Assembly (NCBI GenBank): GCA_965115985.1 | Contig: OZ220474.1 | Location: 2,974,707-3,038,706, forward strand | Direction of reading: 5' to 3' | DNA: 64,000 bases | DNA from: Acidimicrobiales bacterium | Lineage (GTDB): Bacteria; Actinomycetota; Acidimicrobiia; Acidimicrobiales; Bin134 | Shown: piece after piece, positions 10,932 through 52,191 of the stretch | How positions within the stretch are numbered: the first letter of the stretch is position 1 | How the letters are laid out: every line of letters starts with the position of its first letter | Program-made: the position numbers and the translations under genes | The notes under the pieces: generated by a model | Database searches by the model: none | What the model saw: only the letters and a program-made list of their open reading frames with translations | Told to the model about the DNA's origin: nothing

Positions 10932-10948
10932 CCCCCCCCCCCCCCCCC
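10932..10948 (-). repeat. Homopolymer G17 (C17 on + strand) upstream of, or at the extreme 5' end of, the FN3 gene
   Basis: Counted directly: 17 consecutive C at 10932-10948. This is 78-94 nt upstream of the preferred ATG 10854, or codons 7-11 (GGGGG) if TTG 10965 were used. Confidence 0.9.
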
Positions 10949-13260: not shown

Positions 13261-13400
13261 ACCCCGCCGGCGGAGGGCGAAACGCTCGGGCCGTGAACCC
13301 TACCGGCGGAGAGCGAAACGCTCGGGCCGTGAATCCTGCCGGCGGGGAGCGAAACGCTCGGGCCGTGAATCCTGCCGGCGGGGAGCGAAACGCTCGGGCC
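13249..13400 (+). repeat. 36-bp x4.2 tandem repeat of the fmt-stop / rsmB-start GTGA junction
   Basis: ctcgggccGTGAa recurs with TGA at 13258, 13294, 13330 and 13366 (period exactly 36). A fifth partial copy reads GTTG instead of GTGA. Confidence 0.95.
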
Positions 13401-14855: not shown

Positions 14856-15344
14856 ATGACGGATCGGGACACCGCCGGATTGGTGGCCAGAGTCCTAACG
14901 GTGTCCGACGGGGTGATCGCCGGTACCCGAAAGGACGAATCGGGTGATGCTCTGGTGGAGCTGCTGGTTCGCGAGGGATACCGGGTGGACGATCGCCGAG
15001 CGATCGAGGACGGGGTCGAGTCGGTGCGTGATGCCCTGGTGGACCTGTCCAGCGGCTTCGCCGGGCTCGTCGTCACCACCGGAGGGACCGGTTTCGGGCC
15101 TCGGGATCTGACTCCCGAAGGCACTGCCGCGGTGGTGGAGCGGCGGGCCGACGGCCTGGCCGAGGCCACTCGGTTGGTGACCCCGTTCGGTCGTCTGTCC
15201 CGAGCCATCGCCGGCACCAGGGGCACCGCGCTGATCGTGAACCTCCCCGGATCACCGAAGGGGGCGGTGGAGTGTCTGGAAGCGGTGCTCGACGTCATCC
15301 CCCACGCACTGCGCCTGCTGGCCGACCAACCGACCGAGCATTGA
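14856..15344 (+). CDS. mog: Molybdenum cofactor biosynthesis protein MogA/MoaB family
   Basis: VLTVSDGV...GDALVELL...VVTTGGTGFGPRD.TPE...PGSPKGAVECL, the MoaB/Mog fold signature. The ATG at 14856 lies inside ORF 14757-15344. Confidence 0.85.
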   Translation: MTDRDTAGLVARVLTVSDGVIAGTRKDESGDALVELLVREGYRVDDRRAIEDGVESVRDALVDLSSGFAGLVVTTGGTGFGPRDLTPEGTAAVVERRADGLAEATRLVTPFGRLSRAIAGTRGTALIVNLPGSPKGAVECLEAVLDVIPHALRLLADQPTEH

Positions 15345-15345
15345 C

Positions 15346-15490
15346 GTCGCCCCCCGGTGGTGAGGAAGGGGGCCGGGGCTGATGGGGCGGCGGGGTGCCT
15401 CCCGGCCCGAGTCGCCCCCCGGTGGTGAGGAAGGGGGCCGGGGCTGATGGGGCGGCGGGATATCTCCCGGCCCGAATCGCCCCCCGGAGA
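15346..15490 (+). repeat. 65-bp x2.2 tandem repeat between mog and ribD, including the ribD start region
   Basis: gtcgccccccggtggtgaggaagggggccggggctgatggggcggcggg occurs at 15346 and 15411, with a partial third copy from about 15476. The ATGs at 15382 and 15447 are 65 nt apart and so in different frames. Confidence 0.92.
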
Positions 15491-19208: not shown

Positions 19209-19679
19209 ATGGCCAGGATCAAGCGCTCCGTTCCCGCCCGTAAGCGCCGCAAGGCGGTTCTCAAGCGGGCCAAGGGGTACTACGGCAACAAGAGCCGGAC
19301 CTTTCGAGCCGCCAACGAGCAGTTGCTGCACAGCGGGCAGTACGCCTTTCGGGATCGCCGGGCTCGCAAGGGTCAGTTCCGCCGCCTGTGGATCCAGCGC
19401 ATCAACGCCGCCTGCCGCCAGAACGGCACCACTTACAGCCGGTTCATCAACGGCCTCAAGCAGGCCGATGTGGAGGTGGACCGCAAGATCCTGGCCGAGT
19501 TGGCGGTCAGCGACCCCGCGGCCTTCGCCGCGCTGGTGGAGGTTGCCCGGGCCGGGGTCGGAGAGGGAACCGGTGCCGAGGCGGCAGTGGCCGAGGAGTC
19601 CGGCCCCGAGGCGGCAGTGGTCGATGAGGCCGACGTTGTAGAAGTCCCCGACGGGGAAGAAACCGTCCCGGTGGGGTAG
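19209..19679 (+). CDS. rplT: 50S ribosomal protein L20 with acidic C-terminal extension
   Basis: [26 protein letters not shown]...[21 protein letters not shown]. It carries roughly 35 extra Ala/Glu/Val-rich residues containing a 30-bp direct repeat (19576 and 19606). Confidence 0.93.
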
Positions 19680-22052: not shown

Positions 22053-23198
22053 ATGAGCTGGGTGGAGGGGATCGTGTTCACGGTGGGGGCGCTGATCTCC
22101 CTGGGCACGCTGCTGGCCGCGGTCCGAACGGTTGTGGTTCCCCGAGCCGAGCGGAGCCTGCTGATCCGTTTCGTCTACGTCGGCGTGGGGTTGCTGTTCT
22201 CGTTGCTGGCCCGGCACCGCAAGTCCTACGAGTCGCGGGACACGCTTCTGGCCCGCTACGCCTCGACCACGCTGATGATGCTGCCGTTCGTGTGGGCCAC
22301 CGGGATCGTCTACGGGTTCTCGCTCATGTTCTGGGCCAACGGTGTGCGCCCGTACCGGGAGTCCTTGATGTTGAGCGGGTCTTCGCTGGCCACGTTGGGT
22401 TTCCGGGAGAAGAACGACCTGGTGAGCCTGATGCTGGCCATAATCGAGGCGCTCATAGGCCTGGGCATCGTGGCGCTTTTGATCAGCTTTCTTCCCGCCA
22501 TGTACAGCGCGTTCAGTTCTCGGGAGGCCGCGGTCGCCCGACTCGAGGTCAGGGCCGGCACCCCCCCGACGCCGGAGGCCATGATCATTCTGGCTCACAA
22601 GCACGGGGCCCTGGAGTCCATGGGCGATACCTGGACCGAGTGGGAGCACTGGTTCATCCAGATCGAGGAGACCCATCAGATCTTCCCGGCGCTGTCCTTC
22701 TTCCGGTCGGTCCGCTCCGACCGATCGTGGGTCGTCGCCGCCGGTGCCGTCCTGGACACCGCGGCCATCATGTTGTCCACGGTGGCGGTACCTCACTCGC
22801 CGACGGTGCCGTTCATGATCCGGTCGGGTTATATGGCCCTGCGGCACATCGCCGACTTCCTCGGTATCGACTACGACCCCGATCCGCGGCCCACCGACCC
22901 GATCACCGTGCGCCGCCACGAGTTCCACAAAACCTACGAGACGTTGAAAAACGCCGGGGTGCCGGTGGTGGAGGATCGTGACCAGGCGTGGCGTGACTTC
23001 GCCGGTTGGCGGGTCAACTACGACGATTGTCTGGTAGGGCTGGCCTCGATCACCTCGGCCCCACCGGGCAAGTGGAGCAGCGACCGTCCGTCCCCCTACC
23101 ACCGACTGCCATTGCTCCACCGCCCCCGACACCGCCCCCGGACTCCCCTGTTGCGCCAACTCCTGCGCCGATCCGACGATTCGGCGAGGCGGCGGTGA
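22053..23198 (+). CDS. Membrane protein with possible 2-TM pore-loop (ion-channel-like) N-terminal half and cytosolic C-terminal domain
   Basis: The layout is TM - SGSSLATLGFRE - TM (LVSLMLAIIEALIGLGIVALLISFL), which resembles a K+-channel pore helix, filter and inner helix. The function is not established. The stop TGA 23196-23198 lies in the first unit of the downstream 37-bp array. Confidence 0.7.
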   Translation: MSWVEGIVFTVGALISLGTLLAAVRTVVVPRAERSLLIRFVYVGVGLLFSLLARHRKSYESRDTLLARYASTTLMMLPFVWATGIVYGFSLMFWANGVRPYRESLMLSGSSLATLGFREKNDLVSLMLAIIEALIGLGIVALLISFLPAMYSAFSSREAAVARLEVRAGTPPTPEAMIILAHKHGALESMGDTWTEWEHWFIQIEETHQIFPALSFFRSVRSDRSWVVAAGAVLDTAAIMLSTVAVPHSPTVPFMIRSGYMALRHIADFLGIDYDPDPRPTDPITVRRHEFHKTYETLKNAGVPVVEDRDQAWRDFAGWRVNYDDCLVGLASITSAPPGKWSSDRPSPYHRLPLLHRPRHRPRTPLLRQLLRRSDDSARRR

Positions 23199-23393
23199 TT
23201 TCGTGGGAGCGTGCGGTTCGGCGAGGCGGCGGTGATTTCGTGGGAGCGTGCGGTTCGGCGAGGCGGCGGTGATTTCGTGGGAGCGTGCGGTTCGGCGAGG
23301 CGGCGGTGATTTCGTGGGAGCGTGCGGTTCGGCGAGGCGGCGGTGATTTCGTGGGAGCGTGCGGTTCGGCGAGGCGGCGGTGATTTCTTCGGG
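23180..23393. repeat. 37-bp x5.6 tandem repeat starting at the stop codon of the preceding gene
   Basis: ttcggcgaggcggcggtgatttcgtgggagcgtgcgg starts at 23180, 23217, 23254, 23291, 23328 and 23365. The full copies are identical. Confidence 0.95.
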
Positions 23394-23416: not shown

Positions 23417-24349
23417 GTGATGAAGACTCGGATTACCGAACTCCTGGGCATCGATATACCGGTCGTGCAGGCCCCGATGGGCTATATCGCCCGATCCCGG
23501 TTGGCCTCGGCGGTGTCCAACGCCGGAGGCATGGGCATCATCGAGACCTCCTCGGGCCGGCTCGACGACATCAAGGGGGAGATCGCCCGGATGCGCGACC
23601 TCACCGATCGCCCGTGGGGGGTGAACATTGCCCAGCTCCTGGTGCCCGACGCCACCGTCATCGATTTCGTGATCGAGCACGGTGTGAGGTTCGTGACCAC
23701 CTCGGCGGGCGACCCCGGCCGGTTCACCACCGTGCTGAAGGACGCGGGAATCACCGTCTTCCATGTGGTGCCCACGCTGCGAGGAGCCCGCAAGGCGGTG
23801 GACGCCGGGGTGGACGGCCTCGTCGTCGAGGGGGTGGAGGGGGGTGGGTTCAAGAACCCTCATGGCGCGTCCACCATGGTGCTCGCTCCGCTGGTGCGGG
23901 CCTCGGTGGAGGTGCCGATCATTGCGGCCGGGGGGATATGCGACGGGGTGTCCATGGCGGCCGCTCTGGCACTGGGTGCCGATGGCGTGCAGATGGGCAC
24001 CCGGATGCTCTCGGCCGCGGAGTCGCCGGTACACGACAACTGGAAGCAGGCGGTGGTGGAAGCCGCCGAGACCGACACCGTGGTGCTGAACCGGTTCGGT
24101 CGCCCCGGAATGCGGGCGCTGCGCACCTCGCTGACCTCCGAGATGGAGCACCAGGATCAGGTATCGATGCCCGGTCTGGACCGGCTCATGGATCAGTATT
24201 TCGGCGGACGGATGGACGTGGCCGTTCCCTTCGGGGGCCAGGTGATGGGGCGCATAGACGAGGTACGTCCGGTGGCCGACATCCTGGGGGAGGCCTGGGA
24301 GGAATGTCGCCGTCGCCTGTACCGACTGGGCCGGGCTGCTTCGGGATAA
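23417..24349 (+). CDS. Nitronate monooxygenase (NMO / 2-nitropropane dioxygenase family, FMN-dependent)
   Basis: ITELLGIDIPVVQAPMGYIA...LASAVSNAGGMGII...GVDGLVVEGVEGGG...IAAGGI.DG. The start is GTG 23417 or ATG 23420. Confidence 0.9.
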   Translation: MMKTRITELLGIDIPVVQAPMGYIARSRLASAVSNAGGMGIIETSSGRLDDIKGEIARMRDLTDRPWGVNIAQLLVPDATVIDFVIEHGVRFVTTSAGDPGRFTTVLKDAGITVFHVVPTLRGARKAVDAGVDGLVVEGVEGGGFKNPHGASTMVLAPLVRASVEVPIIAAGGICDGVSMAAALALGADGVQMGTRMLSAAESPVHDNWKQAVVEAAETDTVVLNRFGRPGMRALRTSLTSEMEHQDQVSMPGLDRLMDQYFGGRMDVAVPFGGQVMGRIDEVRPVADILGEAWEECRRRLYRLGRAASG

Positions 24350-30334: not shown

Positions 30335-30818
30335 TCCCGTCCCCCTTTCCATGACCGTCAACGGTCGAACCCGGCGAGGGTCGGCCGAGCCCCGGTTGAC
30401 ACTGGCCGACTTCCTGCGGGAACAGGCCCTGTGTACCGGGGTCCACCTGGGCTGCGAGCACGGGGTGTGCGGCTCTTGTACCGTGCTGGTGGACGGCCGG
30501 GCGGTGCGCTCCTGTCTGCTGTTCGCGGTGCAGGCCGACGGGGCCGACGTCACCACCGTGGAAGGGCTCGCTCCCGACGAGGAGACGCTCCATCCGGTGC
30601 AGGAGGCGTTTCGTGACTGCCACGGCCTCCAGTGCGGGTTCTGCACCCCGGGTTTCGTGATGTCGGTGACCGCCTTCCTCCGGGCCAATCCCGACCCCTC
30701 CGACGAGGAGATCCGCCACGGCATCGCCGGCAACCTCTGCCGCTGCACCGGTTACCAGGGCATCGTGGCCGCCACCCGCCAGGCGGCCGCGACCATGAGG
30801 GGAGACAGCCATGAGTAG
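30327..30818 (+). CDS. Molybdenum hydroxylase [2Fe-2S] (small, CoxS-like) subunit
   Basis: The GTG at 30327 follows a CAGGAGG Shine-Dalgarno and overlaps the upstream stop. Cluster motifs are CEHGVCGSCTV and GLQCGFCTPG...CRCTGY. Confidence 0.92.
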   Translation: MADPVPLSMTVNGRTRRGSAEPRLTLADFLREQALCTGVHLGCEHGVCGSCTVLVDGRAVRSCLLFAVQADGADVTTVEGLAPDEETLHPVQEAFRDCHGLQCGFCTPGFVMSVTAFLRANPDPSDEEIRHGIAGNLCRCTGYQGIVAATRQAAATMRGDSHE

Positions 30819-30911
30819 GGGAGACAGCCATGAGGCCAGGCGGCCGCGACCATGAGGGGAGACAGCCATGAGGCCAGGCGGCCGCGACCATGAGGGGAGA
30901 CAGCCATGAGT
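30779..30911 (+). repeat. Complex 19/38/57-bp tandem repeat of the small-subunit stop / large-subunit start junction (ATGAGTAG)
   Basis: ccaggcggccgcgaccatgaggggagacagccatgag occurs at 30779, 30836 and 30874. gggagacagccATGAGTAG occurs at the first copy (stop used at 30816-30818) and at the last copy (ATG used at 30906). Confidence 0.92.
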
Positions 30912-33224
30912 AGGACGGCCGCGGCCCGCTATGTGGGGCAGTCGGTCAAGCGCATCGAGGATCCCCGGCTGGTCACCGGGCACGGCCGGTACGTGGACGA
31001 CGTCGTTCTGCCCGGCATGGTCCACGCCGCCTTCGGGCGCAGCGACCTGGCCCGGGCGACCATCACCCGCCTCGACACCTCTGCGGCCGAGGCCCTGGAG
31101 GGGGTCCGCGCCGTCTTCGTCGGCACCGACCTGAACCCCCACAACGACTCGCTGCGGGCGTCGCTGCATCCACCGGAGTCGCCCGCCCCACCGGCCAACA
31201 TGCTGGCCGACGGCGATGTCCGTTTCGTGGGCGACCCCTACGTGATGGTGCTGGCCGAGAGTCGCTACATCGCCGAGGACGCCCTCGATCTGGTCGAGGT
31301 CGAGTTCGAGCCGTTGGCCCCGGTGGTGGATTACGAGGTCGCCGCCGACGCCGACGATCACGTTCACCCCGAACTGGGCGGCAACCTGGCCCATGATTTG
31401 GTCGTGCCCAACCCGGCCCTGGAGGAGGCCTTTGCCTTGGCCGCTCATGTCGTGACCGAGACCTGGCACCAGCACCGCCAGACCAACGTGCCCATGGAGA
31501 CCCGGGGGATCGTGGCGTCCTGGCAGCCCCATGGCGGGGTGATGGAGGTATGGGCGTCCACCCAGAGTCCCCACGAGATCCAGCACACCGGGGCCCGGGT
31601 GCTGGGCATCGGCGAGCACAAGATGGTGGTCCACTTCGGCGATGTGGGGGGCGGGTTCGGCCAGAAGATGTTCCTGGGGCGCGAGGACATGGCGGTGCTG
31701 GTGGCCGCCCGGCTCCTGGGCAGCCCGGTGAAGTGGATCGAGGATCGCAGGGAGAACCTGCTGGCCTCCAACCATGCTCGCATCGAGCAGGTCACCGTCA
31801 AGATGGCGGTGGGGGAGGATGGTGGTTTCCTGGCCGCCGATCTGGACCAGCTCGAGGACGACGGGGCCTACCCCCTGGGCGGGCCGGCCACGCCGGGGGC
31901 CATGACCGCGATGCAATTCCCCGGGCCCTACCGGATGGGGCCGGTGAGCTGGCGGGCCCGCACGGTGTACACCAACACCTGCGGCCGGGGGGCCTACCGG
32001 GGGCCGTGGCAGATGGAGAGCGTGGCCCGGGAGCAGATGATCGACCGGGTGGCTCGGGAGATCGGCATGGATCCGCTGGAGCTGCGCCGTCGCAACGTGC
32101 TGACCCCCGACGACCTGCCCTACCAGGGGCCCACCGGCCTGGCCTACGAGACCACCATCTCCCCCGATCAAACCCTGGAACAGGCGGCCGAGATGATCGG
32201 CTACGAGCGGTTCCGGGTCGAGCAGGCCCAGGCCCGGGAGCAGGGCCGCTACCTGGGGTTGGGCATCGCTCTGTACATCGAGCCCACATCCATGGGAATG
32301 GGGCCGTTGGGTACGGAATCGGCCATGCTCCGGGTGGAGGTGGACGGCCATGTCAACGTGTTCATGGGCACCGGCTCGCACGGCCAGAGCCTGGAGACCA
32401 CCATGGCCCAACTGGTGGCCGACGAGCTCGGGGTGCGCCCCGAGGACGTCACCCTCCATCAGGGTCACGGCTCGGGCTACGGGTTCGGTACCGGGGGCAG
32501 TCGCTCGGCGGTGATTGCCGGCAGCGCGGCCCGGGCCGCGGCCGCAGGGGTGAAGGAGAAGGTGGTCGCCATTGCCGCCCACCTGATGGAAGCCTCCGCC
32601 GACGACTTGGAGGTGGCCGACGGGGTGATCTCGGTCCGGGGCACACCGGCGGCCTCGACGACGCTGGCCCGGGTGGCGGCCACCGCTTATCAGAACTCCG
32701 ACGCCCTTCCCCCCGGCATGGAGGCCGGACTGGAGCACACCGCCCGTTACAAGGCCCCGCCGACCACCCACTCCAACGCCTGCCACATATGCACCTGCGA
32801 GGTGGATCCGGGAACCGGCAAGGTCACCCTCCTTCGTTACGTGGTCAGTGAGGACTGCGGGGTATTGATCAACCCCATGGTGGTGGACGGCCAGATCGCC
32901 GGAGGAGTGGCCCAGGGCATCGGCGGTGTGCTCTACGAGCATGCGGTGTACGACGAGAGCGGCAATCCACTGGCCTCCACCTTCCTCGACTACCTGGTGC
33001 CCACCGCGGCCGAGGTGCCCGAACTGGAGTGCGGCCACGTGGTGGTGCCCTCCGACACCCCCGGTGGGCACAAGGGGACCGGGGAGGGCGGTGCCATCGG
33101 GGCCCCTCCGGCGGTGTTCAACGCGGTGGCCGACGCTCTGGCCCCCTTCGGGGTGCATCCCAACCGTCAACCGCTCGACCCCGATGCCGTACTCGATCTG
33201 ATCGCTTCGTCCACCAACTCCTAG
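30906..33224 (+). CDS. Molybdopterin-binding large subunit, xanthine dehydrogenase / aldehyde oxidase family
   Basis: 772 aa: VGQSVKRIEDPRLVTGHGRYVDD, GGGFGQK, and a C-terminal GTGEGGAIGAPPAV motif. The active-site loop reads GAYRGPW, which is not the form-I CODH signature. Confidence 0.92.
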   Translation: MSRTAAARYVGQSVKRIEDPRLVTGHGRYVDDVVLPGMVHAAFGRSDLARATITRLDTSAAEALEGVRAVFVGTDLNPHNDSLRASLHPPESPAPPANMLADGDVRFVGDPYVMVLAESRYIAEDALDLVEVEFEPLAPVVDYEVAADADDHVHPELGGNLAHDLVVPNPALEEAFALAAHVVTETWHQHRQTNVPMETRGIVASWQPHGGVMEVWASTQSPHEIQHTGARVLGIGEHKMVVHFGDVGGGFGQKMFLGREDMAVLVAARLLGSPVKWIEDRRENLLASNHARIEQVTVKMAVGEDGGFLAADLDQLEDDGAYPLGGPATPGAMTAMQFPGPYRMGPVSWRARTVYTNTCGRGAYRGPWQMESVAREQMIDRVAREIGMDPLELRRRNVLTPDDLPYQGPTGLAYETTISPDQTLEQAAEMIGYERFRVEQAQAREQGRYLGLGIALYIEPTSMGMGPLGTESAMLRVEVDGHVNVFMGTGSHGQSLETTMAQLVADELGVRPEDVTLHQGHGSGYGFGTGGSRSAVIAGSAARAAAAGVKEKVVAIAAHLMEASADDLEVADGVISVRGTPAASTTLARVAATAYQNSDALPPGMEAGLEHTARYKAPPTTHSNACHICTCEVDPGTGKVTLLRYVVSEDCGVLINPMVVDGQIAGGVAQGIGGVLYEHAVYDESGNPLASTFLDYLVPTAAEVPELECGHVVVPSDTPGGHKGTGEGGAIGAPPAVFNAVADALAPFGVHPNRQPLDPDAVLDLIASSTNS

Positions 33225-34305: not shown

Positions 34306-34378
34306 TCCGGGGTAGCTCAACCGGCAGAGCAAGCGGCTGTTAACCGCTAGGTTGTGAGTTCGAGTCTCACCCCCGGAG
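34306..34378 (+). tRNA. tRNA-Asn (anticodon GTT)
   Basis: I folded a full cloverleaf by hand. Acceptor TCCGGGG/CCCCGGA, D-stem GCTC/GAGC, anticodon arm AGCGG-CTGTTAA-CCGCT, T-arm GTGAG-TTCGAGT-CTCAC, discriminator G. No encoded CCA. Confidence 0.93.
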
Positions 34379-34422: not shown

Positions 34423-34592
34423 CTGTTGGCCGATTGGATCGGCCGACGGGATAGGCCGTTGGGATATCGGGTGGTTGACCGATTGGGTAGGCCGTTGGGA
34501 TATCGGACGGCTGGCCGATTGGGTAGGCCGTTGGGATATCGGACGGCTGGCCGATTGGGTAGGCCGTTGGGATATCGGACGGCATGCCAACA
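34423..34592. repeat. 36-bp x~4.5 tandem repeat filling the spacer between two tRNA genes
   Basis: taggccgttgggatatcggacggctggccgattggg starts at 34452, 34488, 34524 and 34560, with a partial copy from 34423. Confidence 0.93.
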
Positions 34593-34606: not shown

Positions 34607-34682
34607 GATGTGGCCGGGCCCGTAGCTCAGTGGTCAGAGCAGGCGACTCATAATCGCTCGGTCGCGGGTTCGATCCCCGCCG
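34607..34682 (+). tRNA. tRNA with CAT anticodon, probably tRNA-Ile2 (lysidine) rather than elongator Met; CCA encoded
   Basis: Cloverleaf GGGCCCG/CGGGCCC, anticodon arm GGCGA-CTCATAA-TCGCT, T-arm GCGGG-TTCGATC-CCCGC. G1-C72 excludes an initiator. C4-G69/C5-G68 and an anticodon arm nearly identical to my recollection of E. coli ileX favour Ile2. Confidence 0.9.
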
Positions 34683-34904
34683 GGCCCACCACGCACCACC
34701 AGGGTGCCCATGCACCGCTGGGGGGGATGGCCGGAGATAATCCGGCGGGTTCTGCTATTAGTGACGGGCACCATAAGGGTGCCCATGCACCGCTGGGGGG
34801 AGGGGGGGATGGTGCCAGGGGGCTGTTCGGTTGAGGACCGGTCCGGTGTCCCGGCTACGGTGACGACGGGGGCGCACCCTCGGGGTTGCACCTTCGGGGT
34901 TGTT

Positions 34905-38417: not shown

Positions 38418-39332
38418 ATGGCGGTTCTCGACCGGGCGGCCGGGGCGGTGGCCGCGGCGGTCGCCCGGACCAAGGGTGGGGAAACGACCGGGATGCGGGA
38501 GGGCCAGTACGACTTCGACGTGGCCGCCGACGAGGCGGCCCTGGCGGTACTGACCGGGGCCGGCTTCGGGGTGTACAGCGAGGAGTCGGGGTGGCACGAC
38601 GCCGACCGGGAGATGGTGGTGGTGCTCGATCCGGTGGATGGCTCCACCAACGCGGCGCGCGGTCTCCCCTGGGTCTCCACCAGCCTGTGCGTGGTGGACT
38701 CGGAGGGAATGCTGGCCGCGCTGGTGCAGAACCTGGTGAACGGCCGGGCCTACCGGGCGATCAGGGGCCGGGGTTCCACCGTGGACGGCCGACCGCTGGT
38801 GTCTTCGGCCGGACCGGGTAATCCCTGGGGCTCGGGCCCGTCCGCCCAGGTGTCTTCGGCCGGACCGGGTAATCCCTGGGGCTCGGGCCCGTCGGCCCAG
38901 GTGTCTTCGGCCGGACCGGGTAATCCCTGGGGCTCGGGCCCGTCGGCCCAGGTGTCTTCGGCCGGACCGGGTAATCCCTGGGGCTCGGGCCCGTCGGCCC
39001 AGGAGTCGTTGGCCGCGGCCACCGTGGGGTTGACCGGCCTGCCACCCCGGAACCTGGGGTGGGGGCAGTACCGATCCATGGGATCCATCGCCCTGGATCT
39101 GTGCGCCGTGGCCGAGGGAGTGCTGGACGCCTACATCGACTGCACCCCCGAAGGTCATGCCACATGGGACTATCTGGGCGGCATCCTGGTGTGTGACGAG
39201 GCCGGGGTGGCGGTGGACGAGGCCCGGGGGTGCTCCCTGCTGCCCGACGACCTGGCGGAGCGCCGCCTCCCCGTGGCGGCCGCCACCGACCCACTGCTCT
39301 TCGAGGTTCTGGTTCAGCGCCGCAAGTTCTAA
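38418..39332 (+). CDS. Inositol monophosphatase family protein (SuhB/ImpA/CysQ-like)
   Basis: Metal-binding motifs are EESG, VVLDPVDGSTNAARG and WDYLGGILVCDEAG. The ATG at 38418 lies inside ORF 38256-39332. Confidence 0.85.
   Translation: MAVLDRAAGAVAAAVARTKGGETTGMREGQYDFDVAADEAALAVLTGAGFGVYSEESGWHDADREMVVVLDPVDGSTNAARGLPWVSTSLCVVDSEGMLAALVQNLVNGRAYRAIRGRGSTVDGRPLVSSAGPGNPWGSGPSAQVSSAGPGNPWGSGPSAQVSSAGPGNPWGSGPSAQVSSAGPGNPWGSGPSAQESLAAATVGLTGLPPRNLGWGQYRSMGSIALDLCAVAEGVLDAYIDCTPEGHATWDYLGGILVCDEAGVAVDEARGCSLLPDDLAERRLPVAAATDPLLFEVLVQRRKF
38799..39002 (+). repeat. 51-bp x4 in-frame tandem repeat inside the IMPase gene, encoding (VSSAGPGNPWGSGPSAQ)x4
   Basis: gtgtcttcggccggaccgggtaatccctggggctcgggcccgtcSgcccag starts at 38799, 38850, 38901 and 38952. 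Confidence 0.95.
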
Positions 39333-43975: not shown

Positions 43976-45367
43976 AAAAAGGCGTTGGCCGGTGGCTTTG
44001 CTGCTCTGGCCGTTCTGGCCCTGGTGGCATCGGGTTGCGGTAACGATGACGATGCCGCCGACGGCCAAGTATCGGATGATCGGCCGACGGTGATGGCCAC
44101 CACCTCAATCTGGGCCGATGTGGTGACCAACGTGGCTTGTGACGGGCTGGCCGACGTGGTGACGCTGATTCCCCCGGGCGGGGATCCTCACGCCTTTCAA
44201 CCTTCCTTGCAGGACCGGGGCCGCATGGACGATGCCGTCATGATCGTGGCCAACGGTCTTGACTTGGAGGAGGGTGTGATCGACACCATCGAAGCGGTTG
44301 AGGAGGCCGGCACGCCGGTATTTCACGTAGCCGATCACGTCGAGACCATCGGATTCGCCCCCGGTATGGAGTTGGACCACGACGACGAGGACGATCACGG
44401 CGACGATCACGGCGACGAGGACGATCATGGCGACGAGGACGACCATGGCGAGGAAGATGGTGACCACGGCGAGGAAGAGGCTGACGATCATGGCGACGAG
44501 GACGATCATGGCGACGAAGATGGTGACCACGGCGAGGAAGAGGCTGACGATCATGGCGACGAGGACGATCACGGCGAGGAAGAGGCTGACCACGGCGAGG
44601 AAGAGGCTGACGATCATGGCGACGAGGACGATCACGGCGAGGAAGAGGCTGACGATCATGGCGACGAGGACGATCACGGCGAGGAAGAGGCTGACGATCA
44701 TGGCGACGAGGACGATCACGGCGAGGAAGAGGCTGACGATCATGGCGACGAGGACGATCACGGCGAGGAAGAGGCTGACGATCATGGCGACGAGGACGAT
44801 CACGGCGACGAGGACGACGGCCATGGGCACGACCATGGGGCGGAGGACCCCCATATTTGGTTCGATCCGGTGAAGGTGGCGGGCGCGCTGCCTGCGCTCG
44901 GCGAGGCTCTGGGGTCGGCTGCTGGTCTGGATGCTGATGCACTGGATGCTTGCGTGGCGGCATACCGGGAGGAACTGATGGCCCTCGACGCGGAGGTCGA
45001 GAGAATCCTGGAACCGATTGCCCAGGAGGATCGCCTGATGGTCACCAACCACGATGCCCTGGGATATTTCGCCGACCGCTACGGATTCCGGCTGATCGGG
45101 ACGGTTATCCCCGGCGGCTCATCCATGGGCACGGCCAACCCGGCCAACCTTCAGGAGCTGGTGGAACTGATCGACCAGACCGGAGTGCGGGCCATATTCG
45201 CCGAGTCCACGCACAGTTCCCAGGACGCGGAGGCTCTGGGCCGGGAGGCCGGTGTGCAGGTTGTGGTGCTGGATACCGGGTCGCTGGGTCCCGCGGGCAG
45301 CGATTCGGGCACCTACATAGGCTTCATGCGGGCCAACGCCCATAGGATCGCCATCGGCCTCGGCTGA
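43955..45367 (+). CDS. znuA: Metal (Zn/Mn)-binding lipoprotein of an ABC importer, ZnuA/TroA family, with giant His/Asp/Glu-rich loop
   Basis: Lipoprotein signal MRMITNIKKALAGGFAALAVLALVASGC. Cluster-9 SBP blocks: VMATTSIWADVV, GGDPHAFQPS, DPHIWFDP, VTNHDALGYFADRYGF. Between them lies an acidic/His segment of about 150 residues. Alternative starts are 43961 and 43895. Confidence 0.88.
   Translation: MRMITNIKKALAGGFAALAVLALVASGCGNDDDAADGQVSDDRPTVMATTSIWADVVTNVACDGLADVVTLIPPGGDPHAFQPSLQDRGRMDDAVMIVANGLDLEEGVIDTIEAVEEAGTPVFHVADHVETIGFAPGMELDHDDEDDHGDDHGDEDDHGDEDDHGEEDGDHGEEEADDHGDEDDHGDEDGDHGEEEADDHGDEDDHGEEEADHGEEEADDHGDEDDHGEEEADDHGDEDDHGEEEADDHGDEDDHGEEEADDHGDEDDHGEEEADDHGDEDDHGDEDDGHGHDHGAEDPHIWFDPVKVAGALPALGEALGSAAGLDADALDACVAAYREELMALDAEVERILEPIAQEDRLMVTNHDALGYFADRYGFRLIGTVIPGGSSMGTANPANLQELVELIDQTGVRAIFAESTHSSQDAEALGREAGVQVVVLDTGSLGPAGSDSGTYIGFMRANAHRIAIGLG
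44383..44835 (+). repeat. In-frame repeat region encoding the (DHGDEDDHGEEEAD)n loop; five perfect 42-bp units
   Basis: gaggaagaggctgacgatcatggcgacgaggacgatcacggc occurs at 44597, 44639, 44681, 44723 and 44765. More divergent copies lie upstream from about 44383. Confidence 0.93.
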
Positions 45368-46407: not shown

Positions 46408-46902
46408 TCACCGGGCAGAGCCCATCGCCAGGGTGGCGGTCCCGGCCAGCACCGGGTGGGTGCCGTCACGAGCCAGCCAGACGTCGCACTCCACCGTGCC
46501 GTCGTCGCCCACCGAGGTGACCGAGCCACCGGCCTCCAGGCGATCACCGGCGAACACGTTGTCCAAGAAACGCACCCGTATCCGCCGGATGTGCTCGGTA
46601 CCACCGGCCCAGTCGGCCAGCATGTTCATCACGTAGGCCATGTTGTTGGGTCCCTGGTTCACGGGTTGATCCCCCATGCCCAGTTCCCGCACCGCCTCGA
46701 CGTCCCAGTGGATGGGGTTGGGGTCGCCGAGCAGGGCGGCCATGGTCTTCATTTTCTCGGCGTCCACCGACTCGATCACCATCCGGGGCAGATCGTCGCC
46801 CACCGACGGTGTCGGCCGCTTCGACGCACCGGGCGCAGGCGACCCGGACGGGGCCGGCCGGGACGGATCCTCGCCCACCGACGGTGTTGATACTGCGCTC
46901 AT
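46408..46902 (-). CDS. MaoC-like (R)-hydratase hotdog-fold protein
   Basis: From ATG 46902 the sequence reads GDPNPIHWDVEAVRELGMGDQPVNQGPNNMAYVMNML (hydratase 2 motif region). The Pro/Ser-rich N-terminus has a 75-bp-spaced direct repeat (46796 and 46871). Confidence 0.82.
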   Translation of the reverse strand: MSAVSTPSVGEDPSRPAPSGSPAPGASKRPTPSVGDDLPRMVIESVDAEKMKTMAALLGDPNPIHWDVEAVRELGMGDQPVNQGPNNMAYVMNMLADWAGGTEHIRRIRVRFLDNVFAGDRLEAGGSVTSVGDDGTVECDVWLARDGTHPVLAGTATLAMGSAR

Positions 46903-47357
46903 GTCGATCTCCGAGGATAGATGAAGGAGTTGGACACCACTCCGGCCACGTCGCCGTCGGGGGCCACCACCTCCAGCCGGAAGGCCACTATGTCGAAGGT
47001 GCCGGTCCGGGTGCCCTGCTTGCGCACCGCGCTGGTGATTTGCCCCCGCACGGTGTAGGTGGTGCCGACCTCCAGGGGGCGGAGTTGGCGGAGGTCGGAT
47101 TCTCCGAACATGGGGCCGTCGTCGGCCGACGCCCGGCACAGGGTGAACAGCTCGTCGATGCTCAGGCCCATGCCGGCCATGGCCGCGTAGTAGCAGAACA
47201 TGGGGTGGGCGATACCGTCGGTGTGCTGGGGCGCACCCACCACGTCGTTGGTCAGCCATACCCGCCAGGGCTCGACGGTGTAGGTACCGCCCGGGAACTG
47301 CCACCCCACCAGGGCCTCCAGTTCCTCGACGGTCGGAATTGCGGGTAGATCGCTCAT
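46899..47357 (-). CDS. Hotdog-fold protein, MaoC N-terminal-like partner subunit (HadA-like arrangement)
   Basis: 152 aa, overlapping the downstream MaoC gene by ATGA. It has the FAS1-DH-N/UPF0336-like pattern (WQFPGGTYTVEPWRVWL...HPMF). Confidence 0.7.
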   Translation of the reverse strand: MSDLPAIPTVEELEALVGWQFPGGTYTVEPWRVWLTNDVVGAPQHTDGIAHPMFCYYAAMAGMGLSIDELFTLCRASADDGPMFGESDLRQLRPLEVGTTYTVRGQITSAVRKQGTRTGTFDIVAFRLEVVAPDGDVAGVVSNSFIYPRRST

Positions 47358-47423
47358 CGGTTCACCACCGGCAGGCCTCGGGGTGGATCGCTCATCGGTT
47401 CACCACCGGCAGGCCTCGGGGAT
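47348..47423. repeat. 38-bp x2 tandem duplication of the LLM-stop / hotdog-start junction
   Basis: gatcgctcatcggttcaccaccggcaggcctcgggg occurs at 47348 and 47386. The start used is in copy 1 (CAT 47355-47357) and the stop used is in copy 2 (TCA 47400-47402). Confidence 0.93.
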
Positions 47424-48482
47424 GGCCGGATGGTCGGGGGCGGGGTACTTGCGGTGCAGAGGTTGTACCACCTCCTCGCCGAATCGCTGGATCTGCTCCC
47501 GGGTGGCCTCGAAAGAGGGGCCGGTGACCATGCGGAACTGCACGGTGAAGTATTGCACCCCCAGATCCTCGTGGTACTGCTCCAAGCGCTCCCGGCACTG
47601 GGCCGGAGAACCCACCACTATGTGCTCGCGGGCCGATTCGGTGGTGATCTTCTCCGGGGAGTCGAACTCGGGATGGTGGGCCAGGATCCCCTGCTCGCAG
47701 TAGAAGCGCATCTCGGGTACGTAGTGGGTGCCGTACTGCTCGGCGGCCTGCTCGAAGCTGTCGGCCACCCACGCCTTGCGCATCAGGACTACGAACGGCT
47801 CCTTGCCATGTTCGATGGCTCTGGCCCGATAGGCCCCGGCCTGTTGGTCCCAGGTCTCCTTCAGGATGGGGAAGTCGTCGCAGGTCCACGACTCGGCGTA
47901 TGCCCCGCACCGCTCTATGGCGGCGGGCAACTGGCCACCGCCCCAGAACGGGAATCGGGGTTGCTGGTAGGAGTTGGGCGACAAAAGGCCGTCGCTCACC
48001 CGGTAGAAGTCCCCGTCCCAGTCGAACCGCTCGCCCTTGGATTGCAGGGCTTTGTCGATGATGGCCACGTTCTCCAGGTAGCGGCCCAGCATTCGCTCGG
48101 GCGGAACCCCGAACTGCCCCCAGTAGCCGGCGTGGAAGCCCCGGCCCCAGGTCATGTACAGCCGACCCCGGGAAAGGTTGTCGATGATGGCGCACTGCTC
48201 GGCCACCTGCATGGGGTGGTAGAGGGTGTTGACCAGGCAGTAGGAGCCGATGGCCACCCGAGTGGTCTCCCGGGCCAGGATCATCAGCAGATTCAGCGGG
48301 GAGCCGAAGTAGGACTCGGTTCGACCGTGGCGGTCGGGCACCTGGATGGAATGAAACCCCGACCGCTCGGCCAGTATGCCCTCCTCCACCATGGCGTCGA
48401 GGACGTCGGCGGCGTTGTCGGGGGTGGGCAGGGGCTGGTCGTAGGACCCGTGGTTGGTGTCGATCAGATAGCCGATGCGCAA
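47400..48482 (-). CDS. LLM-class (luciferase-like) flavin-dependent oxidoreductase
   Basis: 360 aa: ERSGFHSIQVPDRHG, YHPMQVAEQCAIIDNLSRGRLYMTWGRGFH. Confidence 0.85.
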   Translation of the reverse strand: MRIGYLIDTNHGSYDQPLPTPDNAADVLDAMVEEGILAERSGFHSIQVPDRHGRTESYFGSPLNLLMILARETTRVAIGSYCLVNTLYHPMQVAEQCAIIDNLSRGRLYMTWGRGFHAGYWGQFGVPPERMLGRYLENVAIIDKALQSKGERFDWDGDFYRVSDGLLSPNSYQQPRFPFWGGGQLPAAIERCGAYAESWTCDDFPILKETWDQQAGAYRARAIEHGKEPFVVLMRKAWVADSFEQAAEQYGTHYVPEMRFYCEQGILAHHPEFDSPEKITTESAREHIVVGSPAQCRERLEQYHEDLGVQYFTVQFRMVTGPSFEATREQIQRFGEEVVQPLHRKYPAPDHPAIPEACRW

Positions 48483-48644
48483 GAGGTACTCGCTTTCGAT
48501 GGATGGTGGTCGCCGGTCATCCTCCCCACCTTATTGGTCGCCGCCCGTGGATGTCTCCGGCACTCGGCCCAAAAGGCAGTAGCCGCCGCTCCCTGGGCCT
48601 ACGCTGAGCCTCGCGTACAATTCGAGTCGGGCAAAGGAGTACAC

Positions 48645-49412
48645 GTGGCCATTCACACCGAGATCGATGGGCAGGGCATTGCCGTGGTCACCATGGACAA
48701 TCCCCCGGTGAACGCCCTCAACATCGCCGACACCTACAAGCTGGCCGAGGTCTTTCGCGGTTTCAAGCACGATCCCGAGGTGCGGGTTGCGATCCTGACC
48801 GCGGTGGGACGGGGGTTCAACGCCGGGGTGGACATCAAGGAGATGCAGGCCATGGAGGGCTTCGAGGGCGTTCTGGGCACCGGCGACGCCTGTTACGAGG
48901 CCTTCGGCGCGGTGTACGACTGTGCGGTGCCGGTGGTGGCGGCCGTTCAGGACTTCTGTTTGGGTCTGGGCATCGGCTTGGCCGGCAACTGCGACCTGGT
49001 GGTGGCCGCCGAGGGAGTCAAGTTCTCCATGCCCGAGGTGGACAATGGTGCCCTGGGAGCAGCCACCCACACCGCCCGGCTGGTGCCGGAGAAGGTGATG
49101 CGGTGGATGATGTACAGTTGCCAGCCGGTGGCCGCCGAGGACCTGCACCGGTGGGGAACCGTGCTGAGCGTGGTTCCCGGCGACGAGCTCATGGCCGAGG
49201 CCCGGCGAGTGGCCGGGGTGATCGCGTCGAAGCCGCCCGGTGTCATCCGCAAGGCCAAGTGGTCGATCAACGGGATCGACCCGGTGGACGTACACCGCAG
49301 CTATCGCTTCGAGCAGGGGTTCACCTACGAGCTCAACCTCATGGGGGAGGGCGACAAGGCTCGGGAGGCGTTCATCCGGGGAGAACGGGAGTCCAACAAG
49401 GCAGCCGGATAG
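48645..49412 (+). CDS. Enoyl-CoA hydratase/isomerase (crotonase) family protein
   Basis: The GTG at 48645 is preceded by AAGGAG. Sequence: IAVVTMDNPPVNAL, GRGFNAGVDIKE, GLGIGLAGNCDLVVAAE. Confidence 0.88.
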   Translation: MAIHTEIDGQGIAVVTMDNPPVNALNIADTYKLAEVFRGFKHDPEVRVAILTAVGRGFNAGVDIKEMQAMEGFEGVLGTGDACYEAFGAVYDCAVPVVAAVQDFCLGLGIGLAGNCDLVVAAEGVKFSMPEVDNGALGAATHTARLVPEKVMRWMMYSCQPVAAEDLHRWGTVLSVVPGDELMAEARRVAGVIASKPPGVIRKAKWSINGIDPVDVHRSYRFEQGFTYELNLMGEGDKAREAFIRGERESNKAAG

Positions 49413-49426
49413 GGCTTGAGCGCAGA

Positions 49427-49640
49427 CATCGTAATCGTGGGGGCCGGTTCGGGGGTTGGGGCATGAACGGGGCGACGGCCTCCCAGCCGGTCGATACCGT
49501 CGTCGTGGGGGCCGGTTCGGGGGTTGGGGCATGAACGGGGCGACGGCCTCCCAGCCGGTCGATACCGTCGTCGTGGGGGCCGGTTCGGGGGTTGGGGCAT
49601 GAACGGGGCGACGGCCTCCCAGCCGGTCGATACCGTCGTC
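49427..49640 (+). repeat. 68-bp x3.1 tandem repeat of the GMC oxidoreductase 5' end (start codon plus first 22 codons)
   Basis: atgaacggggcgacggcctcccagccggtcgataccgtcgtcgtgggggccggttcgggggttggggc has its ATG at 49463, 49531 and 49599. Confidence 0.95.
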
Positions 49641-51140
49641 GTGGGGGCCGGTTCGGCGGGGTCGGTGCTGGCTGCCCGGTTGTCCGAGGATCCCGCTCGC
49701 CGGGTGGTGCTGCTCGAAGCCGGTCCCGATCATGGTGACCGCCCGCCCCCGGAACTGGCCGACGTCACCGAGTCGTCCCACCCTGATCATGATTGGGGCG
49801 ATGAGGTGCGTCTGCCCGGGGGTCGAACCCAGCACTATCCCCGGGGACGGGTGGTGGGCGGCAGTTCGGCGGTCAACGGCGGCATCGCCGTCCGGGCCAT
49901 GCCCGCCGATTTCGATGCCTGGGGATTTCCCGAATGGCGGTGGGAGGCGATTCTGGATGGCTTCCGGCGACTGGAATCCGATCCTGACGGCGAGGATCGC
50001 TGGCACGGTCGAAACGGCCCGTTGCCCATTGTCCGCACGCCCGAGGCCGATCTCCACCCGGTTCATGTCGCCTTCTACGAGGCGTGCCGGTGGGCCGGTC
50101 ACGGCTTTGTCGCCGATCACAACGCCCCGGATTCCACCGGTGTGGGTCCGCTGCCCCGCAATCGCCGGGGTCGGCAACGGGTATCGGCGGCGGACGCCTA
50201 CCTGACTCCCGAGGTCCGGGGCCGCCCCAACCTGGAGGTTCGAGGCGGTTGCCCGGTTTCGTCGGTGCGGTGGAGCGGCCGCCGGGCCGTGGGGGTAAAC
50301 GTGGCCGGCAGCCACGGGCTGGAGGCCGTCGTCGCCGGGGAGGTGATAGTGGCGGCCGGGGTGGTGCAGTCCCCGCTGCTGTTGTGGCGTTCCGGTATCG
50401 GCCCGGCCTCGGAGCTGGCCGGTTTGGGGCTGGACGTCGTGGTGGACCGCCCCGGGGTGGGGGCGAACCTCTCCGATCACCCCGCGATCTATCAGTTCGC
50501 CGTACCCAAGCCCCGGATGGTGTCCCCGAGCGACGTCACCATCCAGACCCTATTGCGGTTCACCAGCTCGACCGGCCCTACCAACGATCTCCAACTGTTC
50601 CCCGTAGGGGTGATCGACCTGTCGGCCAACCCCCGGCGGCGGGCCGAGGCCGGCGGAGTGGACACCGTCTTCGCGTTGGTGGCGGCCCTGCAACGGGTGG
50701 AGAGCCGGGGGTCGGTGCGACCGGTATCGGCCGATCCCGGGTATCCGCCCGCCATCACCTATCCGTTCATGGCTCACAAGCCCGACCGGGATCGACTGGT
50801 CGAGGCTCTGGAGCTGGGGCTGGAGCTGCTGGGCTCGCCCCCGTATCAAAACGTGGCCGACGGTCCCTTGTTCCTGCCCGACAAGCTCGACCGTGACGAA
50901 CTGTCCGCCCATGTGTTCGCCAATCATGTGGCCTTCTATCACGGAGCGGGCACGTGTGCGATGGGCTCGCCCGACGATTCCGGCGCGGTGGTCGGCCCCC
51001 ACGGGCAGGTGTGGGGCACCGAGGGGCTGCGGGTGTGCGATGCCTCCATCATCCCCGAAACCCCGAGAGCCAACACCAACCTGAACGTCATCGCCATCGC
51101 CGAGCACATGTCCGACCTGCTCCGAAAGGGTGGGCCATAG
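49599..51140 (+). CDS. GMC-family FAD oxidoreductase (choline dehydrogenase-like)
   Basis: MNGATASQPVDTVVVGAGSAGSVLAARLSEDP..VLLEAG (Rossmann GxGxxG). GMC signature regions GG.S.VNG and a C-terminal HGAGTCAMG. Confidence 0.9.
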   Translation: MNGATASQPVDTVVVGAGSAGSVLAARLSEDPARRVVLLEAGPDHGDRPPPELADVTESSHPDHDWGDEVRLPGGRTQHYPRGRVVGGSSAVNGGIAVRAMPADFDAWGFPEWRWEAILDGFRRLESDPDGEDRWHGRNGPLPIVRTPEADLHPVHVAFYEACRWAGHGFVADHNAPDSTGVGPLPRNRRGRQRVSAADAYLTPEVRGRPNLEVRGGCPVSSVRWSGRRAVGVNVAGSHGLEAVVAGEVIVAAGVVQSPLLLWRSGIGPASELAGLGLDVVVDRPGVGANLSDHPAIYQFAVPKPRMVSPSDVTIQTLLRFTSSTGPTNDLQLFPVGVIDLSANPRRRAEAGGVDTVFALVAALQRVESRGSVRPVSADPGYPPAITYPFMAHKPDRDRLVEALELGLELLGSPPYQNVADGPLFLPDKLDRDELSAHVFANHVAFYHGAGTCAMGSPDDSGAVVGPHGQVWGTEGLRVCDASIIPETPRANTNLNVIAIAEHMSDLLRKGGP

Positions 51141-51207
51141 CTGGGCCATATCCACGAGGGTGGCCCAGGCCGGGGAGATTGTCGGTCCGGCGATATAACG
51201 TCGGGGT

Positions 51208-52191
51208 ATGACTGCGGCGGCCCGGCATGCCTACGACACCCATGACGACCTGGTGGAGGACTACTACGAGAGGGGGTGGACCGACGGGTTGCCGGTCGTG
51301 GCTCCCACTCCCGACAAGGTGTCCGCCTTCCTGGAGCACGCCGGATTGCCGGGAGACGAGGTGTTGGGGGCGGTGCCCACCCGAGAGGTGATCTGCACCG
51401 CGGAGCAGGCCGCGGTCAACGCGGTCATGGCCGGCTGTCTGACCGAGTACTTTCCCGCAGTGGTGGCGGCCGTGCGGGCCCACCTCCACCCCAAGGGGAA
51501 CTGCCACTCCACCACGGGCACGTTGTCGGGCGCGGCCCAGGCGGTGATAATCAACGGCCCCGTCCGCAACCGGTTGGGGGTGGTCTCGGGAGCGGGTTGC
51601 TTCGGGCCGGGGTTCCGGGCCAACGCCACCATCGGTCGGGCGCTGCGGCTGGTGATCCGCAACGTGTGCCGAGGCATCCCCGGGTTCTTGGACCGGGCCA
51701 GCTTCTCCACCCCGGCCCGCTACTCCTTCTGCTTCGGGGAGAACGAGGAGGCCTCCGACTGGTTGCCGCTGCACGTGCAGCGGGGGCTGGCTCCCGACCG
51801 GAGCGCGGTGACGGTTCATTCCCTGATGAAGATGGTCGAGGTCACCGATTTCATCAGCCGCACCGCCGAGGGGGTGTGCAACTCCCTGGTGACCCAGATA
51901 CGGGCCAACGGCATTACCGGGGACTCCTGGCTGGGCGAGGACGGCAACGTGGTCGTGGTGGTAGGTCACGAGCACCATCGGTTCTTCATCGAGGAGGGAT
52001 GGTCGAAGGCCGACATCCAGGATTATCTGTGGCCCCGGCTGAACGCCCCCGCCACCAGCGCCACCGACCGCATGGCTCGCATCGGCAAACCGGAGGGCAT
52101 CCTGATCGTGGCCGCCGGGGGAGCGGGCATGGGGGCAAGCTGGCTGTTGCTGCCCCACCTGGCTCTGGCCATCACCGAGCCCATCGTCTGA
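51208..52191 (+). CDS. Conserved hypothetical protein (no family recognised), immediately upstream of the UGSC gene
   Basis: 327-aa ORF with globular, non-repetitive composition (GWTDGLPVVAPTPDKV..., NCHSTTGT...). It has no recognisable motifs. Confidence 0.7.
   Translation: MTAAARHAYDTHDDLVEDYYERGWTDGLPVVAPTPDKVSAFLEHAGLPGDEVLGAVPTREVICTAEQAAVNAVMAGCLTEYFPAVVAAVRAHLHPKGNCHSTTGTLSGAAQAVIINGPVRNRLGVVSGAGCFGPGFRANATIGRALRLVIRNVCRGIPGFLDRASFSTPARYSFCFGENEEASDWLPLHVQRGLAPDRSAVTVHSLMKMVEVTDFISRTAEGVCNSLVTQIRANGITGDSWLGEDGNVVVVVGHEHHRFFIEEGWSKADIQDYLWPRLNAPATSATDRMARIGKPEGILIVAAGGAGMGASWLLLPHLALAITEPIV

Follow-up and report, generated by a model that had tools for sequence, protein, structure and literature searches.

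The 64-kb stretch of DNA analysed here (referred to as the window) comes from contig OZ220474.1 of an Acidimicrobiales bacterium and includes a gene encoding an oxidoreductase of the GMC family, at the 5′ end of which lies a perfect tandem repeat with a 68-bp unit. The unit contains the ribosome-binding site and start codon of the GMC gene together with its first codons, and two identical decoy open reading frames (ORFs) consequently precede the real start. The array is probably a young, lineage-specific minisatellite at an operon junction, the nearly neutral product of an active duplication process rather than an evolved regulator of the gene that it precedes.

The array occupies positions 49435–49656 (period 68 bp, 3.26 copies, 100% matches, no indels and a score of 444 in Tandem Repeats Finder (TRF); no strand is assigned to it). 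A direct check of periodicity finds perfect 68-nt periodicity at these positions and none outside them, and a repeat search returns the same family. A chance origin is excluded by the resulting run of 154 positions of perfect self-identity. Each unit can be divided into an 18-bp core, A (TCGTGGGGGCCGGTTCGG), and a 50-bp segment, B (beginning GGGTTGGGGCATGAAC and ending GATACCGTCG). Core A occurs four times, at 49435, 49503, 49571 and 49639, whilst segment B is present in three copies and carries a G-run resembling a Shine–Dalgarno (SD) sequence, the ATG and the first codons. Bacterial minisatellites, or variable number tandem repeats (VNTRs), consist of head-to-tail copies of a unit of 10–100 bp, a description that fits an array of 68 bp × 3.26. 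An earlier note on this DNA, made from the letters alone, had already described a 68-bp unit present three times with ATGs at 49463, 49531 and 49599; TRF and the periodicity check bear this out, although the span given there (49427–49640) has to be corrected to the one above.

The array sits between the stop codon of an upstream gene (ending at 49412) and the start of the GMC gene (49599), with all of these features on one strand. The upstream cistron (48645–49412, plus strand; Pfam ECH_1, E = 1.6e-38) encodes a member of the enoyl-CoA hydratase/isomerase family (ECH); it starts with a GTG that follows AAGGAG and stops with the TAG at 49410–49412. Only 3 nt beyond this stop, TTG 49416 opens a 16-codon ORF (SADIVIVGAGSGVGA; 49416–49466, plus strand), here called rung 0, which was absent from the earlier note and whose TGA (49464–49466) overlaps ATG 49463. 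There follow two identical decoy mini-ORFs of 23 codons (MNGATASQPVDTVVVGAGSGVGA), rung 1 (49463–49534, plus strand), which has its own SD-like G-run and shares an ATGA with the next ATG, and rung 2 (49531–49602, plus strand), whose stop overlaps the true start, again as ATGA. As the note had reported, copies 1 and 2 stop at TGA codons overlapping the next ATG (at 49532–49534 and 49600–49602) and the third copy alone runs on into the enzyme, in an ORF extending from 49599 to a TAG at 51138–51140. It had also counted 22 codons as shared between the copies. The ATG and first codons do indeed lie within the unit, but just the first 19 codons are common with the real protein, codons 20–23 of the decoys (GVGA) being the next unit read out of frame.

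A continuous chain of co-directional ORFs, with links of +3, −4, −4 and −4, thus leads from the stop of ECH to the start of GMC. A −4 overlap is the classic arrangement for termination–reinitiation coupling, which needs an overlap or a very short spacer (reviewed in PMC12548453), and every link of the chain is of one kind or the other. To judge from its geometry, a relay of ribosomes along the chain is plausible, and an influence of copy number on GMC expression is possible. The relay is at the same time an arithmetic consequence of two properties of the unit, a period that is 2 mod 3 and a second codon that begins with A. Where a start with A as its fourth base (ATGA), or a TGATG junction, is duplicated with a 2 mod 3 period, the ORF in each copy ends at the next overlap.

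The effect of copy number on the reading frame can be followed by deleting units in silico. With one or two units gone, the last ATG still has its complete upstream context. Loss of all three removes 204 nt (3 × 68), the array as a whole being frame-neutral, and fuses TTG 49416 in frame to give an intact 506 amino acid ORF beginning SADIVIVGAGSAGSVLAARL. The gene stays open in every case, with 0 to 3 units deleted. Since the last ATG keeps its context and every copy number, zero included, gives an intact gene, the array does not form an on/off switch; the frame switching by copy number that characterises phase-variable contingency loci is not seen when one, two or three units are removed.

The enzyme itself is an intact flavin adenine dinucleotide (FAD)-dependent oxidoreductase of 513 amino acids (49599–51140, plus strand; Pfam GMC_oxred_N, 3.8e-34; GMC_oxred_C, 5.8e-30), with a GxGxxG FAD-binding motif (GAGSAG) at residues 16–21. 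The best curated match is to NCBIfam TIGR03970 (MftG-like) but the score of 345 bits is below the equivalog cutoff of 387, and the protein is therefore assigned to the GMC family only. An identical protein (P0001) is present in public databases, as are about 30 orthologues with 75–81% identity, one of them named Candidatus Poriferisocius sp. Modelling of codon usage places the best start at 49599.

For comparison, we used 26 orthologous loci from sponge-associated Acidimicrobiia (the Ca. Poriferisocius clade), taken from species-representative genomes, many of them at chromosome level and all of them other than the window's own. The earlier note had proposed that the orthologous 5′ region be examined in relatives, and the result is clear: a tandem repeat is found at the GMC 5′ end in none of the 26 loci (relatives at 75–85% identity). 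Absence from all 26 loci, combined with 100% identity between the copies, indicates that the array is very recent. All of the orthologues begin M(x0-9)[FVI]DTVIVGGGSAGSVLAARLSEDP. ECH lies upstream of the GMC gene in 13 of the relatives, among which the 3′ end of ECH is conserved, and in nine of these 13 the GMC start overlaps the ECH stop, eight by 1 nt (TAATG or TAGTG) and one by 11 nt; a spacer of 12–40 nt separates the genes in the remaining four. The overlap in nine of 13 relatives points to coupling to ECH as the probable ancestral state. No terminator-like or promoter-like site was detected on the plus strand between ECH and GMC and this, together with the ancestral overlap, makes it likely that the two genes are co-transcribed.

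Alignment with the relatives also offers some clues as to how the unit arose. A reconstruction without the repeat is collinear with the compact relatives in MAFFT alignments (TAGGGC, a short spacer, the start and GAC AxC GTx ATx GTG GGG), leaving 68 bp that have no counterpart in them. Rung 0 contains a second, slightly diverged copy of the N-terminal codons of the GMC gene (GAC ATC GTA ATC and then core A, which together encode DIVIVGAGS) and this copy sits at the position of the gene's start in the compact relatives. Each of the two 12-nt stretches that specify D-x-V-x agrees with the relatives' consensus (GAC ACC GTC ATC) at 10 of 12 positions, with the differences at different sites, so that both can be taken as genuine copies of the gene's N-terminal codons. 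The locus also illustrates one route by which a new start and N-terminus can be gained by a gene, with the old one left upstream as a relic. A search for the source of segment B (blastn-short against the masked window and 29 related loci) returned only chance-level matches of 12–21 nt, and neither segment B nor the pre-repeat junction has a match in the Joint Genome Institute (JGI) metagenomes. We also considered an older, diverged duplicate of ~40 nt as the seed of the array but dropped this idea, as the flank-extension score is not above that of shuffled sequences (left 946/5000, right 2694/5000). Ectopic recombination at the GxGxxG-coding core is one possibility for the origin of the progenitor.

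Two of the orthologous loci have features of their own. In the closest relative (L022, 10001–11196), the GMC match is only 1196 nt long for query residues 4–510, so that the gene may have an internal deletion or be a pseudogene. In another (L005), a 36-bp × 3.1 array is found at 11482–11592, at the GMC orthologue's 3′ end.

The GMC array is by no means the only one in its neighbourhood. A census of the window (67% G+C; gene map drawn by codon usage and checked with Pfam) identified 26 tandem arrays with periods of 17–68 bp and identities of 76–100%; the consensus units of the other 25 are unrelated to the GMC unit. The distribution of these arrays respects reading frames. All seven that lie within genes have periods divisible by 3, whilst each of the 14 that break frame is either intergenic or placed across the end of a gene (Fisher p = 0.0012), and the hosts of the in-frame arrays are real housekeeping genes, encoding CoaBC, RsmB, inositol monophosphatase, ZnuA and ribosomal protein L20. 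Across 530 kb of sequence, the 26 relatives have 47 arrays, with all 33 in-gene examples in frame and only four that break frame. Frame-breaking arrays are thus found at a density of 2.2 per 10 kb in the window versus 0.075 per 10 kb in the relatives, a difference of about 29-fold. Array periods cluster at 33–39 bp in the window and in the relatives (L001–L028) alike. Taken together, the frame-respecting distribution and the high density are the signature of a high rate of short tandem duplication that is filtered by purifying selection, and the spread of identities from 76 to 100% suggests that duplication is continuing.

The in-frame arrays are found in a variety of protein contexts. CoaBC has a 36 × 3 repeat in its inter-domain linker (1804–1911) and ribosomal protein L20 a 30 × 1.9 repeat in its C-terminal tail (19576–19632). 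In the inositol monophosphatase gene, a 51 × 4.3 repeat with 97% identity (38798–39015) splits the Pfam domain in two, whilst in ZnuA an array with 42/63-bp periods (44402–44818) encodes a much-expanded loop, rich in His, Asp and Glu, of about 140 residues. The rsmB gene carries in-frame arrays both in its inter-domain linker (14008–14196, 36-bp unit) and inside the methyltransferase domain (14538–14658, 48-bp unit), in addition to one at its 5′ end (13249–13402, 36-bp unit).

At least five of the duplications in the 64 kb, the GMC ladder included, span a start codon. At the junction between genes that Pfam identifies as a [2Fe–2S] small subunit (30351–30818) and a molybdopterin large subunit (30906–33224), 19- and 38-bp units with 100% identity (30798–30910) have duplicated the ancestral ATGAGTAG stop/start overlap, and ATGA-linked mini-ORFs precede the real start at 30906. 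On the minus strand, a 38-bp × 2.1 array (47343–47421) between the gene for a luciferase-like monooxygenase (47400–48482) and the next gene (46899–47357) has copied a stop, a 4-nt spacer and an ATGA start, generating a mini-ORF (MSDPPRGLPVVNR) that ends by ATGA at the true start; this junction is single copy in all 24 relatives examined. A 65-bp × 2.2 array (15346–15487) between a gene with a MoCF_biosynth domain (14856–15344) and ribD has TTGA and TGATG links, the true start of ribD being uncertain (15447 or 15513). The fifth is the array at the 5′ end of rsmB, whose in-frame unit duplicates the GTGA at which fmt and rsmB meet and has given RsmB four 12-residue repeats (VNPAGGERNARA) at its N-terminus. 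Mini-ORFs of the same kind are seen in a perfect 37-bp × 5.6 array (23180–23387) that runs from the last 19 nt of the gene at 22062–23198 towards a nitronate monooxygenase gene (23417–24349); here, the GTGA-linked mini-ORFs each cover 74 nt (two units; 2 mod 3).

How readily might ribosomes enter at the copied starts? The G-run upstream of the ATG in each GMC unit has a predicted duplex with the anti-SD sequence of −9.3 kcal/mol, placing it in the top 8% of the genes in the window, whereas the SD-like score upstream of TTG 49416 is only median (−4.6 kcal/mol). Such strong SD-like runs make the decoy ATGs credible initiation sites. A canonical G-quadruplex (G4) motif (GGGGG N7 GGGGG N2 GGGG N7 GGGG) lies over the SD-like run and ATG of the last unit (49575–49608, plus strand) and is repeated at 49439–49472 and 49507–49540. 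G4-aware folding predicts one G4 per unit, with a hairpin in which the G-run is paired with a downstream CCUCCC as the alternative fold. Folding z-scores relative to shuffled sequences are +1.7 for the 301-nt region, −0.7 for the full unit, −2.3 for the 58-nt core hairpin and +0.5 in a rotation-aware control, and the support that these predictions lend to a special RNA structure at the array is weak. The site has no match in Rfam. A leader-peptide attenuator, a conserved upstream ORF and a cis-acting RNA were all rejected as explanations, on the basis of absence from the 26 relatives, the lack of a terminator-like site between ECH and GMC or an Rfam match at the site and a folding energy for the whole region that is not below that of shuffles. 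Neither fold is a general property of the arrays in the window. The G4 motif occurs in three of the 26 arrays versus 0.8 expected (p about 0.05) and is retained as a local feature rather than as a general driver; for hairpin-forming units the mean z is −0.3, with four of 21 arrays below −1.64.

We propose that the 68-bp unit was recently expanded to three copies by slippage or by unequal recombination between the 18-bp cores A. The expanded unit would simply have happened to cover the GMC gene's ribosome-binding site and start along with its opening 19 codons, each upstream copy then being read into the next unit and ending at the ATGA of that unit. Such an array may be tolerated for three reasons: the last copy retains its complete native initiation context, the enzyme would be intact at every copy number, zero included, and the stop/start overlaps could carry ribosomes on from ECH as far as the true GMC start. 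In the genome more widely, purifying selection would act as a filter on an unusually active process of short tandem duplication. Any effect on GMC expression, where initiation at the decoys would be set against the relay, would probably be modest, of either sign, and would vary with copy number.

A number of observations weigh against this account. The picture of the arrays is drawn from 64 kb of the genome only. The one-copy progenitor must already have carried two copies of the 18-bp core separated by 50 bp, an arrangement that the account does not explain, and no source for the first ~40 nt of segment B was detected in the window, the 29 related loci or the JGI metagenomes. The copies of the N-terminal codons differ at four of 10 positions, whilst the neighbouring 18 nt are identical. 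The strong SD-like runs predicted at the decoys mean that these could affect expression substantially. Finally, relay chains (defined by links of −4 to +12) are found at six of the eight arrays at co-directional junctions versus about 1.5 expected from shuffled gaps, and all four of the frame-breaking start-spanning arrays have 2 mod 3 periods with relays. This excess of relays and the uniformity of the periods leave room for selection that preserves coupling.

The controls, however, weaken relay chains as proof of such selection. Chains appear in 3–50% of trials with shuffled gaps, depending on the junction, and when start-spanning duplications were simulated at random at the window's 13 tight junctions, relays resulted in 52% of cases for periods that are 2 mod 3, 34% for 1 mod 3 and 11% for 0 mod 3. 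Periods of 2 mod 3 do predominate among the frame-breaking arrays (11/14, p = 0.03) but the bias is just as marked in gaps between convergent or divergent genes, where coupling plays no part. The relays are therefore compatible with selection for the keeping of coupling but poor evidence for it, and in this respect are suggestive only.

The most serious alternative to a near-neutral minisatellite is that the ATGA-coupled chain has been kept because it sets GMC output, with slippage providing heritable and reversible variation in that output. This is close to what the earlier note had proposed, namely a built-in termination–reinitiation ladder whose length would tune expression, and there is something to be said for it. 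The chain from ECH to GMC is continuous, with all links −4 or +3, and a strong SD-like run is present at each rung; a G4 or hairpin at each SD/ATG, if formed, would leave initiation reliant on a supply of ribosomes from upstream. Relays are in excess at the co-directional junctions, as described above, and in Mycobacterium tuberculosis copy number is known to tune expression (PMC12817950). Yet the array is missing from all 26 relatives and its copies show zero divergence, mutation alone gives a relay about half the time when the period is 2 mod 3, the same bias is seen at gaps where it can serve no coupling, and the RNA structure does not robustly exceed the baseline set by composition. The last ATG, moreover, has its native context at any copy number, leaving no off state. 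The geometry of the ladder stands, and with rung 0 is fuller than was first stated, but the notion that it is built in, or designed to tune expression, finds no support in an array that is absent from the relatives, has identical copies, is one of 26 whose distribution shows purifying selection on frequent duplication, arises with a relay in 52% of simulations and leaves the gene intact at any copy number. We regard adaptive tuning as unlikely.

A shade less likely again is a reading that joins the two, in which duplication is active (with units mostly of 33–68 bp), mainly those junction arrays that keep a relay survive and the result is a local, non-mobile counterpart of MIRUs (the interspersed repetitive units of mycobacteria), with the four-rung GMC ladder, its SD-like runs maybe sequestered in a G4 or hairpin, acting as a copy-number rheostat. 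Were this the case, an uncultured sponge symbiont would gain reversible variation in the output of an enzyme.

It is distinctly improbable that the unit acts instead at the level of transcription, by carrying a promoter element such as TACCGT, which resembles an actinobacterial −10 and lies at the 3′ end of segment B. Repeats of tens of bp upstream of genes in M. tuberculosis do vary and change expression (PMC12817950), and one TANNNT-like hexamer is present in the unit but not in the sequence of the relatives. A lone match of this kind is fairly often expected by chance, however, and the position of the array inside an operon, with the ancestral overlap seen in relatives, favours read-through from ECH. 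No sigma-70-type match was found in 48300–51400, in a scan that does not cover actinobacterial promoters (which have no strong −35).

Translation of a longer protein from the in-frame TTG 49524 (538 amino acids), with the repeat encoding an Arg/Gly-rich N-terminal extension, is suggested by the fact that the GMC frame is open from 49467 and that the ORF listing gives a 538 amino acid ORF from this TTG, but we consider it very improbable: the codon-usage score peaks at ATG 49599, the strong SD-like run precedes the ATGs and not the TTG, just 1–9 residues precede the β1 strand in the orthologues and the public annotation is of the 513 amino acid product. Equally improbable is an artefact of assembly or polishing, with one copy or none in the true genome, for whilst there is a single public assembly, with the identical protein on one contig only and no independent contig to be found, the respect of the arrays for reading frames (7/7 in-gene arrays in frame, 14/14 frame-breaking arrays outside genes or at their edges) is a strong argument against it, many of the arrays have diverged copies (76–98% identical), sister genomes presumably from the same sequencing project (judging by the style of accession and isolate names) have no excess of arrays and a 222-bp array fits well inside one long read.

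Two other repeats in the window deserve brief mention. A 36-bp × 4.0 array with 92% identity (34441–34583) is located between two tRNA genes (34306–34378 and 34616–34688), and a homopolymer of 17 C (10932–10948) lies in the gap between minus-strand genes at 5659–10629 and 11091–11684. Homopolymer tracts such as this are of a kind able to vary by slippage.

For the GMC gene alone, the minisatellite is of little importance: the repeat, which leaves the enzyme intact, is probably an accident that has been tolerated. Of greater interest than the ladder is the lineage-specific excess of arrays. If the pattern seen in the window holds over the 3.37-Mb chromosome, it would amount to a natural experiment on the origin of short tandem duplications and their filtering by selection on reading frame, and one in which a coupling constraint at operon junctions, the logic proposed for MIRUs, could be tested on hundreds of independent local events.

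It is with the MIRU-VNTRs of M. tuberculosis that the array has most in common. These too are tandem units of 40–100 bp found at junctions between co-directional genes in an actinobacterium, and their copy number varies by slippage. The MIRU typing loci mostly have 53- or 77-bp units, both of which are, like 68, 2 mod 3 (PMC3558156), and the ORF within a MIRU is coupled to the downstream gene at −4, an arrangement thought to minimise the effect on expression (PMC12548453), just as the overlaps at 49463, 49531 and 49599 are ATGA (−4). MIRUs, however, are a dispersed and apparently mobile family with sequence shared at dozens of loci, whereas no other copy of the 68-bp unit or of segment B is present in the 64-kb window or in the 29 related loci. 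The GMC unit is built instead from the gene's own ribosome-binding site, start and 19 codons, its mini-ORFs being decoy N-termini. By analogy, then, the ladder would work like a MIRU without being a member of that family.

Comparisons can also be drawn with other systems. In M. tuberculosis, the phase-variable promoter repeats (such as VNTR3690, which lies upstream of lpdA) are likewise repeats of tens of bp located just upstream of a gene, and expand and contract at rates of 1e-2 to 1e-3 per chromosome, altering expression of the adjacent gene (PMC12817950); these change promoter strength, however, whereas the GMC unit is operon-internal and carries a ribosome-binding site and ATG but no detected promoter. 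The 4-nt stop/start overlap at each ATGA rung, and the TAATG or TAGTG of the relatives, recall termination–reinitiation coupling of the trp operon type, but coupling of that type links two functional genes, whilst here three consecutive mini-ORFs, recent and non-conserved, have been interposed. With simple-sequence contingency loci the array shares a slippage-prone 5′ repeat whose unit is not a multiple of 3. Those loci have units of 1–7 bp and switch the reading frame on and off, whereas the unit here is 68 bp and all copy numbers leave an intact ORF; a classical contingency locus is excluded, as no copy number breaks the gene. The feature at the GMC 5′ end is, in sum, a minisatellite that lies where two genes meet and contains mini-ORFs compatible with coupling, and as such is of an already known type.

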